Assembly (NCBI GenBank): GCA_934085875.1
Contig: CAKOHQ010000001.1
Span: forward strand, 1 to 58,085
Length of the DNA stretch: 58,085 bases
Direction: 5' to 3'
Origin: an uncultured Bacilli bacterium
GTDB taxonomy: Bacteria; Bacillota_I; Bacilli_A; RF39; UBA660
Positions 15,987-58,085 of this stretch are shown here, in pieces. The position numbers and the translations under genes were made by a program. The stretch's first letter is position 1, and each line of letters begins with the position of its first letter. The notes below the pieces were generated by a model that was given only the letters and a program-made list of their open reading frames with translations, searched no databases and was not told where the DNA came from.

Positions 15987-16119
15987 GTATGTTTAATTAA
16001 TTTATAATAAGTTACTTTATTCGACAAATCATTTAAATATTTTGGTGTAATATATATAACCAGAACATTTATTGTTTATGTCCTGCCTTTTGTATTTAAG
16101 TATGAAGGGAGTAATAGTT

Positions 16120-16209
16120 ATGAAGTTTTATTCATGTATTATGAAAATATTGGATAGAATAATTATTATATTTTTTATTAAAATCTTATATAGTTTTATA
16201 AAAGACTAA
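16120..16209 (+). CDS. 29-aa hydrophobic peptide (type I toxin candidate, family A copy 1)
   Basis: SD GAAGGGAG lies 8 nt upstream of the ATG. Product MKFYSCIMKILDRIIIIFFIKILYSFIKD. A codon-for-codon homologue occurs at 57724-57813. The ORF sits inside a transcript whose ends are complementary (16058-16090 versus 16275-16306). Confidence 0.5.
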   Translation: MKFYSCIMKILDRIIIIFFIKILYSFIKD

Positions 16210-16227
16210 TTTAATGGGGGTTTTGGT

Positions 16228-16304
16228 AAACAAAAAAGACATAGTACTAAAAAGTACAAATGTCACACCACAAGGTAGGACATTTAATAATAAATGTTCT
16301 ACTT
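16228..16304 (-). ncRNA. About 75-nt cis-antisense sRNA (antitoxin candidate, family A copy 1)
   Basis: Minus-strand TTGACA (16339-16334) - 17 nt - TACAAT (16316-16311). 5' hairpin GUAGAACAUUU/AAAUGUCCUAC. Terminator hairpin at 16264-16238 plus a U6 tract. Confidence 0.6.
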
Positions 16305-16445
16305 AACTGAATTGTACCATTATATTATGTTAGTGTCAAATATATATTTTTTAATTTTTAGTAAACTAATTTTTAATAATAAAATATCTTTAAATCTTTT
16401 AATTTATTATATAATATGATAAAATTTTCTTAGTAAGGTGATGTT

Positions 16446-57609: not shown

Positions 57610-57638
57610 ATATGTCAACAAAATATGACATATTTTTT
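57610..57638. terminator. Bidirectional terminator after rluD
   Basis: ATATGTCA-N8-TGACATAT hairpin flanked by A and T runs. Confidence 0.6.
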
Positions 57639-57723
57639 AAATGCTTTATAGTAGTATATGTAACCAGAACATTTTATATTCTGTTAGTGTTTACCCAACT
57701 ATATATATAGAAGGGATGCATAC

Positions 57724-57813
57724 TTTAAATTTAAAAGTTTTATTATTAAAATACTTGATAGTATAATTTTATTATACATATTGAAAATAATTTTCTTTCT
57801 CCTACAACAATAG
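57724..57813 (+). pseudogene. Start-less homologue of the 29-aa family A peptide
   Basis: Ungapped 30-codon alignment with 16120-16209 ending at the same stop (FKFKSFIIKILDSIILLYILKIIFFLLQQ*). TTT replaces the ATG, and the nearest ATG (57716) is out of frame. Confidence 0.35.
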
Positions 57814-57859
57814 GGAGTTTTGGTTATAACAATTAGACACTAGTGTTTTATATTTGTGC

Positions 57860-57937
57860 AAAAAAAAGCACACGTATTAAAAATACGAGTGTCTACACAA
57901 CATGGGTAGACATTCTAGATATAAGAATGTTCTACTT
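57860..57937 (-). ncRNA. About 78-nt cis-antisense sRNA (family A copy 2)
   Basis: Minus-strand TTGACA (57972-57967) - 17 nt - TAAAAT (57949-57944). 5' hairpin GUAGAACAUUCU/AGAAUGUCUAC. Terminator CACUCGUAU-UUUUA-AUACGUGUG plus U8. Confidence 0.6.
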
Positions 57938-58085
57938 AAATTAATTTTAACATCACTATAATGATGTGTCAATTAGAAAATTCACATAAATAATGATTGA
58001 AATATATAATTTTTTATTTTATAATTTTATTAGAGTAGTAATCTACTTGAAAATAATATATAAGATAGGAGAGAGTCAATTATGA

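Follow-up and report, generated by a model that had tools for sequence, protein, structure and literature searches.

The txpA/RatA and bsrG/SR4 pairs of Bacillus subtilis, together with bsrE/SR5 and yonT/SR6, are type I toxin–antitoxin modules in which the mRNA for a small hydrophobic peptide is complementary in its 3′ part to a convergent small RNA (sRNA), with RNase III available to act on the two (PMC3531473). A module of this layout lies downstream of rluD, at positions 57640–57975, in the stretch of DNA analysed here (58,085 nucleotides of contig CAKOHQ010000001.1 from an uncultured Bacilli bacterium; hereafter the window). To judge from its sequence, it is a small membrane-peptide/antisense-RNA gene pair built like a type I toxin–antitoxin, and a decayed representative of a known kind of system, in an as yet undescribed family: its peptide gene has lost an ancestral ATG start codon, whereas the orthologue in the closest sister species keeps it. 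We consider it probable that this copy is a recently silenced member of a multi-copy, genus-restricted pair with type I layout and a 3′-overlapping antitoxin.

The module shares with the txpA and bsrG group a host among the Firmicutes (Bacilli), the small hydrophobic peptide and a convergent sRNA whose sequence complements the 3′ portion of the toxin mRNA, which places it in the 3′-overlapping subclass. It differs from that group in several respects. There is no similarity of peptide or RNA sequence; the module peptide has 29 amino acids as against 38–59; the module sRNA lies entirely in the 3′ untranslated region (UTR), short of the open reading frame (ORF); and the module mRNA has long-distance helices between its 5′ and 3′ parts. 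Moreover, the group is represented by one or few prophage-borne copies, whereas the module occurs in about 19 places of a 1.19-Mb genome. The par/Fst arrangement, in which one bidirectional terminator is shared and 5′ direct repeats render the two RNAs complementary at the ribosome-binding site of the toxin, does not describe it either: the two RNAs of the module have separate terminators, and the 5′ element that they repeat stands in inverted orientation in the DNA, which gives both RNAs the same, not complementary, sequence.

Self-closure of the mRNA between its 5′ and 3′ ends is known from hok/sok (plasmid R1 and Escherichia coli chromosomes) and from aapA/IsoA of Helicobacter pylori (PMC6733600). 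The corresponding architecture of the module is seen in silico, through covariation, as two 5′–3′ helices that are 98% and 94% paired. Chromosomal copies of these two systems commonly decay, and mutation of the start codon is a known way of silencing the toxin: in aapA3/IsoA3, a type I pair of H. pylori, such mutations abolish toxin translation and rescue cells without antitoxin (PMC6733600). However, both systems are proteobacterial and have no sequence homology to the module, and their antitoxins target the 5′ or translation-initiation region, whereas the module sRNA targets the 3′ end. The sprG/sprF system of Staphylococcus aureus resembles the module in forming several paralogous 3′-overlapping type I pairs per genome; cross-regulation between these pairs was observed at the RNA level, yet each antitoxin neutralised only its cognate toxin (PMC6393307). 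The module has no homology to sprG/sprF, and cross-pairing between its copies is only predicted, from paralogues that are 88–94% identical.

The start position of the window peptide, 57724–57726, reads TTT. The frame is open upstream only as far as a TAG at 57685–57687, and no in-frame ATG, GTG or TTG occurs between this stop and codon 2; to our knowledge, UUU is not usable as an initiator. The window copy has a Shine–Dalgarno sequence (SD) and the frame but TTT in place of ATG, and so lacks the complete small hydrophobic ORF (under 60 amino acids) with SD and start codon that is typical of type I toxins; this is present in 37 of the 41 full-length copies described below. Otherwise the frame, (F)KFKSFIIKILDSIILLYILKIIFFLLQQ followed by the stop TAG (57724–57813, + strand), is undamaged. 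It aligns codon for codon with 16120–16209 in another copy of the module (copy 1, 16040–16345) and stops at the same position; the pattern KF.S.I.KILD.II, the serine codons TCA versus AGT and the leucine codons TTG versus CTT can be read directly in both. The codon-for-codon alignment, the shared stop, the pattern, the codon pairs and the TTT had all been described in an earlier sequence-only reading of the window, and they stood when checked.

That reading had proposed to look for an ATG version of the homologous locus, and several were found. In the closest sister species (G003), whose rluD region is 94% identical to the window, a copy of the same subfamily is flanked by rluD on one side and, on the other, by a homologue (43% identity) of the secreted-protein gene that follows the window module. 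This syntenic copy starts with ATG and encodes MKFKSFIIKILDSIILLYILKIIFFLLQQ, identical to window residues 2–29; all four differences between the two ORFs are synonymous. ATG is also kept in two paralogues, C27:18056–18389 (94% identical, encoding MKFKNFIIKIFDSIILLYILKIIFFLLQQ) and C12:12760–13092 (88% identical, encoding MKFKSFIIKILDSIILLYILKLVIILLQN), in both of which 5 nt separate SD and start codon. A metagenome pattern scan for the start region yielded one extra locus only, on contig OIZL01004402 (L137), which represents a third lineage and encodes the same peptide, again with ATG. Since the syntenic G003 copy, the paralogues and OIZL01004402 all have ATG, these alignments place the loss of an ancestral start codon in the window copy. 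Polarised by outgroup, the changes on the window branch are ATG to TTT, one T to C in the spacer between SD and start, and two synonymous C to T.

Contigs tend to break at this repeated element, and TTT could in principle be a sequencing or assembly artefact of a repeat-rich metagenome-assembled genome (MAG), for instance a chimera between copies. This can practically be excluded, because eight independent assemblies carry TTT. An exact look-up of the RluD protein returned ten contigs, and the eight that span the module, which come from three or more projects, match the window exactly across all 477 nt after rluD, TTT included. Furthermore, no other copy in the genome has a TTT available for mis-joining. 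The sole more divergent lineage (L133/L159, ERR14760544; 95.7%) and six additional contigs retrieved with its sigma-factor variant stop before the start codon.

In G003 (L086 5296–6237, G003:C3, minus strand), a gene for a 313-amino-acid protein with RhuM and Fic/DOC matches (Pfam, 72 and 38 bits) stands between rluD and the module; this insert is not in the window genome, and behind it comes a fragment similar to the 3′ half of a different module subfamily. In L137 (4160–4560 of OIZL01004402) the ORF and the sRNA gene are intact, and an unrelated terminator hairpin replaces the + strand promoter and the first ~25 nt of the leader. The toxin may be silenced there at the level of transcription instead.

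The substitution itself has a regular form. The ancestral AC ATG AAA TTT AAA AGT became AC TTT AAA TTT AAA AGT, which turns ATGAAATTTAAA into TTTAAATTTAAA, a perfect tandem repeat and palindrome, and the two altered bases are exactly those that separate ATGAAA from the neighbouring TTTAAA. Quasi-palindrome correction is a recognised mutational class. One templated event, slippage or quasi-palindrome correction, plausibly explains both substitutions, and a single event fits because the ORF carries no other damage.

The same mutation created the heptamer U UUA AAU (57724–57730), which leads from the frame of the ATG at 57716–57718 into the peptide frame. As the downstream frame is untouched, with only synonymous changes on the window branch, it could be supposed that the peptide is still made by non-canonical initiation, either from ATG 57716 with a −1 slip on the heptamer or from a weak non-AUG start. 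We regard this as very unlikely. ATG 57716, correctly described in the sequence-only reading as the only nearby one and out of frame, is embedded in the SD (AGAAGGGAUG) and has no usable spacing; no in-frame alternative precedes codon 2. The same SD-embedded ATG is found in the intact copies of G003 and C12; the ORF that it begins there has three codons and terminates in an ATGA overlap, and consequently this ATG is not a replacement start. The earlier suggestion of a toxin-dead, antitoxin-retained locus is supported by the ATG orthologue and by the intact, covarying sRNA gene, with the roles of toxin and antitoxin assigned from the layout.

The module spans about 330 bp and comprises a + strand promoter, a structured leader, an SD, a hydrophobic ORF of 29–33 codons and a convergent antisense sRNA in the 3′ UTR of the mRNA. 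Window 57640–57975 aligns end to end with copy 1 (76% mean column identity in a pairwise alignment), and the conserved termini previously reported were confirmed to match copy 1 (GTAACCAGAACATT at 57660–57673 and AATGTTCTACTTAA at 57926–57939). In all full copies the order of parts is constant, the leader opens with TAACCAGA(A/G)C, and the ORF is rich in I, L and F, with Lys or Arg towards the N-terminus and a polar C-terminal end; a near-consensus promoter on the opposite strand directs an RNA of about 75 nt back into the structured 3′ UTR.

In the window copy the candidate promoter of the peptide mRNA, ATGACA-16-TATAGT (57625–57652, + strand), has 10 of 12 matches and, as had been pointed out, overlaps the rluD terminator hairpin (ATATGTCA/TGACATAT plus T6; 57610–57639, + strand), the 3′ arm of which covers part of its −35 element. 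This hairpin fills the site that in other copies is taken by a conserved upstream block with GACATATTTTTT at its end. The geometry NNGACA-16-TAT(A/T)GT is found again in the paralogues, and transcription would start at about 57659–57662. The SD, AGAAGGGA (57709–57716, + strand), is conserved in all copies.

The predicted antisense sRNA gene of about 77 nt (57861–57937, − strand) is wholly inside the mRNA 3′ UTR, with the stop codon (57813) on one side and the mRNA terminator (57939) on the other, and at sequence level has its own promoter and terminator. Read from 57937 to 57861, the sRNA consists of a 5′ hairpin (57904–57937), a linker, a terminator hairpin (57868–57892) and a U-run (+ strand A-run 57860–57867). 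Its promoter, TTGACA-17-TGnTAAAAT (57944–57972, − strand), is consensus-like, as described earlier, and with 11 of 12 matches and a TG extension it is the best in the region. The mRNA terminator hairpin (GGGUAGACAUUCU/AGAAUGUUCUACUU; 57903–57939, + strand), followed by a U-rich tail, is on the − strand the 5′ hairpin of the sRNA. A simple terminator scan under a strict rule returned no terminator at the module; the hairpins are bulged and poor in G-C pairs.

The predicted fold of the sRNA (−19 kcal/mol, z = −3.8) consists of the 5′ hairpin and of a terminator hairpin plus U-run, the second in the form already proposed. RNAalifold on 32 distinct family sRNAs recovered both hairpins, with 3 of 11 pairs compensatory, which bears out the compensatory changes claimed for the 5′ hairpin. 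The mRNA fold reaches −71.4 kcal/mol (z = −5.85). Pairing of its helices was counted over the 41 copies, against controls in which the partner was slid by 1–3 columns (30–59% paired); the copies fall into about six subfamilies, so that independent covariation events are few. The 5′-end segment AGAACAUU (57666–57673, + strand) is complementary to the 3′ arm of the mRNA terminator (57926–57933). This long-distance helix, LDI-1, is 98% paired, and its pair 57669/57930 is G-C in 23 copies, A-U in 18 and broken in none; the outer stem of the terminator is 99% paired.

Further into the leader, segment a (UAGUGUUUACCCA; 57685–57697, + strand) has two alternative partners. Its positions 57687–57697 pair with segment d (57903–57913), which is contained in the terminator hairpin, in 94% of cases, and 6 of the 11 pairs are compensatory; positions 57685–57692 pair with 57835–57842 of segment b in 100%, with 3 of 8 compensatory. 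Segment b itself (UAGACACUA; 57834–57842, + strand), which follows the ORF, is also complementary to segment c, the helix 57834–57841/57888–57895 being 91% paired with 2 of 8 pairs compensatory. The a–d helix is present in the centroid fold and absent from the minimum-free-energy (MFE) fold. As a resembles c, and b and d are complementary to these two, covariation by itself cannot tell which of the alternative helices form. The alignments nevertheless give robust support to mutually exclusive helices that link the 5′ leader to the sRNA-bound 3′ region, and it follows that the sRNA is a near-copy of the leader, not its complement.

Two other readings of these elements were rejected. A helix between the 5′ end and the post-ORF GUUUUGGUUA, which appears in the MFE fold, is 70% paired in the family and less supported than the 5′–3′ helix. 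The inverted termini do not indicate a miniature inverted-repeat element or other transposon: the repeats are set some 30 nt into the conserved unit, fall within both transcripts and covary as RNA helices.

From these parts a mechanism can be proposed. In an intact copy, a structured mRNA of about 290 nt would encode the 29-amino-acid membrane-type peptide, presumably toxic, and the convergent sRNA of about 77 nt would be fully complementary to its 3′ UTR. By analogy with RatA/txpA and SR4/bsrG, sRNA and mRNA would form a long duplex cut by RNase III; decay of RatA/txpA in B. subtilis runs via RNase III on such a duplex (PMC3531473), and the genome studied here has its own RNase III gene (222 bits, above the model cut-off). 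The mRNA 5′ end and leader would pair with the same 3′ region, and the sRNA may also reshape the leader. In the window copy, the change from ATG to TTT would stop initiation of the peptide, with promoters, SD, frame and sRNA gene intact. Because both promoters look intact, the locus probably still makes both RNAs, and it would now supply RNA only: an untranslatable mRNA plus an sRNA able to pair with two live sister mRNAs.

The predicted duplex energies of the window sRNA are −130 kcal/mol with the cognate mRNA, −101 with C27, −98 with C12 and −50 with copy 1. The C27 and C12 duplexes thus reach about 78% of the cognate energy, the strongest after the cognate one, which makes these two live copies, and not copy 1, the likely best targets in trans according to the model. 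Cross-protection should not be assumed, however, because the sprG/sprF pairs showed no cross-neutralisation.

The relation between sRNA and leader could also be understood as a four-segment switch, with the start-less copy kept as an RNA-only regulator. The sRNA, as a near-copy of the leader, would occupy segments c–d, push the leader off the 3′ end and redirect it, and the extra sRNA and decoy mRNA of the start-less copy would set a threshold for the two live sister toxins. Such a leader-mimic mechanism has not been described for 3′-overlapping antitoxins, and we consider it doubtful.

The extent of the family was assessed with a profile built from nine copies. In the genome of the window (1.19 Mb, 67 contigs, 23.8% G+C), about 19 places match the module (nhmmer; E = 9e-79 for the window copy); nine copies are full-length (E = 1e-42 to 1e-81), and further copies are cut by contig ends. 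The assembly breaks at this repeat at C27:18462–18538, C64:4013–4103, C24:20089–20179, C43:9214–9286, C21:14–61 and C51:1–202. The module is a main cause of the fragmentation of this MAG and leaves the true copy number uncertain. Matches at E ≤ 1e-5 were obtained in 7 of 15 species of the window's genus, with up to 15–17 per genome, and outside the genus there were only three short weak ones: two within the same family, in two different genera, and a third in a different family. Among the genomes searched, the family, as recognised by this profile, is restricted to the genus.

A further 39 loci were retrieved. The full-length set amounts to 41 copies in five species, and the 37 mentioned above retain SD, start codon and open frame. 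The ratio of non-synonymous to synonymous polymorphism (pN/pS) is 0.47–0.60 in each of five subfamilies. The sequence-only reading had argued for past selection on the peptide, and had named random frame disruption in all copies as the pattern expected of a merely nucleotide-level similarity. The preserved frames and a pN/pS of about 0.5 support selection, and frame disruption of that kind was not observed.

As far as the sequences tell, decay falls on the peptide side, and loss of the start codon is an ordinary route. The genome of the window (G000) holds a second copy with a dead peptide gene, at C10:28659–28978 (minus strand), which has ATG changed to ATA, the SD GGAGG changed to GGAAG and a 1-nt deletion after the ORF; L119 of G006 has a +1 frameshift; and L105 of G011, a partial copy outside the 41, has AAG for ATG plus a deletion. 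In each of these the sRNA promoter is kept. In L104 of G011 the ATG has become GTG, still a start. A second partial copy outside the 41, L107 of G008 (G008:C20:14200–14850, ~230–408), lacks the whole ORF segment, whereas its leader (5′) and sRNA region remain; the fragment retrieved shows no sRNA promoter, which makes it the only dead copy of that kind. A TTGACA box, a spacer of 16–18 nt and a TAnnnT box, nearly always with TG, are present in every copy that covers the sRNA promoter region, and, the L107 fragment aside, this promoter was never seen broken. The closest relative of the C10 copy in G002 (L116) is intact.

Several observations weigh against the interpretation as a recently silenced type I pair. 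The sRNA matches nothing in Rfam (best score 19.8 bits against a gathering score of 52, from unrelated families, E ≥ 0.75), and searches with five or six subfamily peptides gave no family of Pfam or NCBIfam at E ≤ 10, the Fst, TxpA/BsrG, Hok, Ldr and Ibs models included; a search of the whole window against Rfam returned tRNAs only. A pN/pS of about 0.5 indicates only moderate purifying selection. The eight assemblies with TTT are 99.3–100% identical over 4.4 kb, and thus represent one near-clonal lineage and give no date for TTT. When the sRNA site, 57861–57937, was blocked in silico, the SD became less accessible in 20 copies and more accessible in 10 (mean change −0.05), with no consistent effect that would show sRNA binding to open or to close the SD. 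Finally, the hairpin that would template the change from ATG to TTT is weak, at −1.4 kcal/mol as DNA.

The absence of homology to known toxin or antitoxin families and the moderate selection would also suit a family that is not a toxin–antitoxin at all, consisting of harmless membrane peptides under antisense control or of a selfish or duplicated repeat, in which case the start loss would be plain pseudogenisation. The copies often adjoin a large paralogous family of secreted proteins, and may spread by segmental duplication. We take this alternative seriously but consider it unlikely. Against it speak features typical of type I modules, namely a hydrophobic peptide of 29–33 amino acids with charged ends, a strong and conserved antisense promoter, long-distance helices and many copies, as well as the recurrence of one-sided decay in which the peptide is lost and the sRNA promoter kept, L107 again excepted.

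The event is ordinary as a kind; the family is unannotated, and its natural ATG/TTT pair is convenient for experiments. Type I modules hardly ever receive an annotation, and least often in MAGs; here a gut bacterium of 1.19 Mb devotes about 5 kb (~0.4–0.5%) of its genome to one undescribed family. The presence of the same module with and without a start codon, syntenic in two sister species, constitutes a natural experiment. In the turnover of the family, silencing strikes the peptide first, more than once through its start codon, and the antisense RNA gene is not the part that breaks. The window sRNA and the C27 and C12 mRNAs provide concrete pairs with which the protection offered by an orphan antitoxin against paralogous toxins could be addressed.

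The surroundings of the module also show recurrent features. A flank motif, ATGATTGAAATATATAATTTTTT, a weak hairpin plus T-run at 57985–58014 (+ strand), borders many copies and may be a backup terminator or insulator before the next gene (start 58082). The same motif (AATGATTGAAATATATCATTTTTTT) recurs upstream of six other copies (C27a, C12, C7, C27b, C64 and C24), and C27a and C12 have it on their downstream side as well; the repeat unit may include it as an insulating terminator. The next gene itself (window 58082 onward; complete in L127, 4365–6011) encodes a protein of 548 amino acids with a signal-like N-terminal sequence, MNRRQKIIVSVTGI...LTYAYFLTK, and has no Pfam match. Its family is large and paralogous, with 15 N-terminal tblastn matches in the same genome, many of them at contig ends. 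The modules C1b, C12, C25, G003:C3 and L137 stand directly upstream of members of this family, which suggests that module and downstream gene duplicate together. A distant subfamily of the module, represented by a tandem at C44:4749–5045 and C44:5155–5452 and by C17:22630–22922, encodes a 24-amino-acid peptide with a GTG start (MFKNLEKLLNRIIIILMLIFLDKD) and has a longer antisense RNA (~90 nt) with a G+C-richer terminator.

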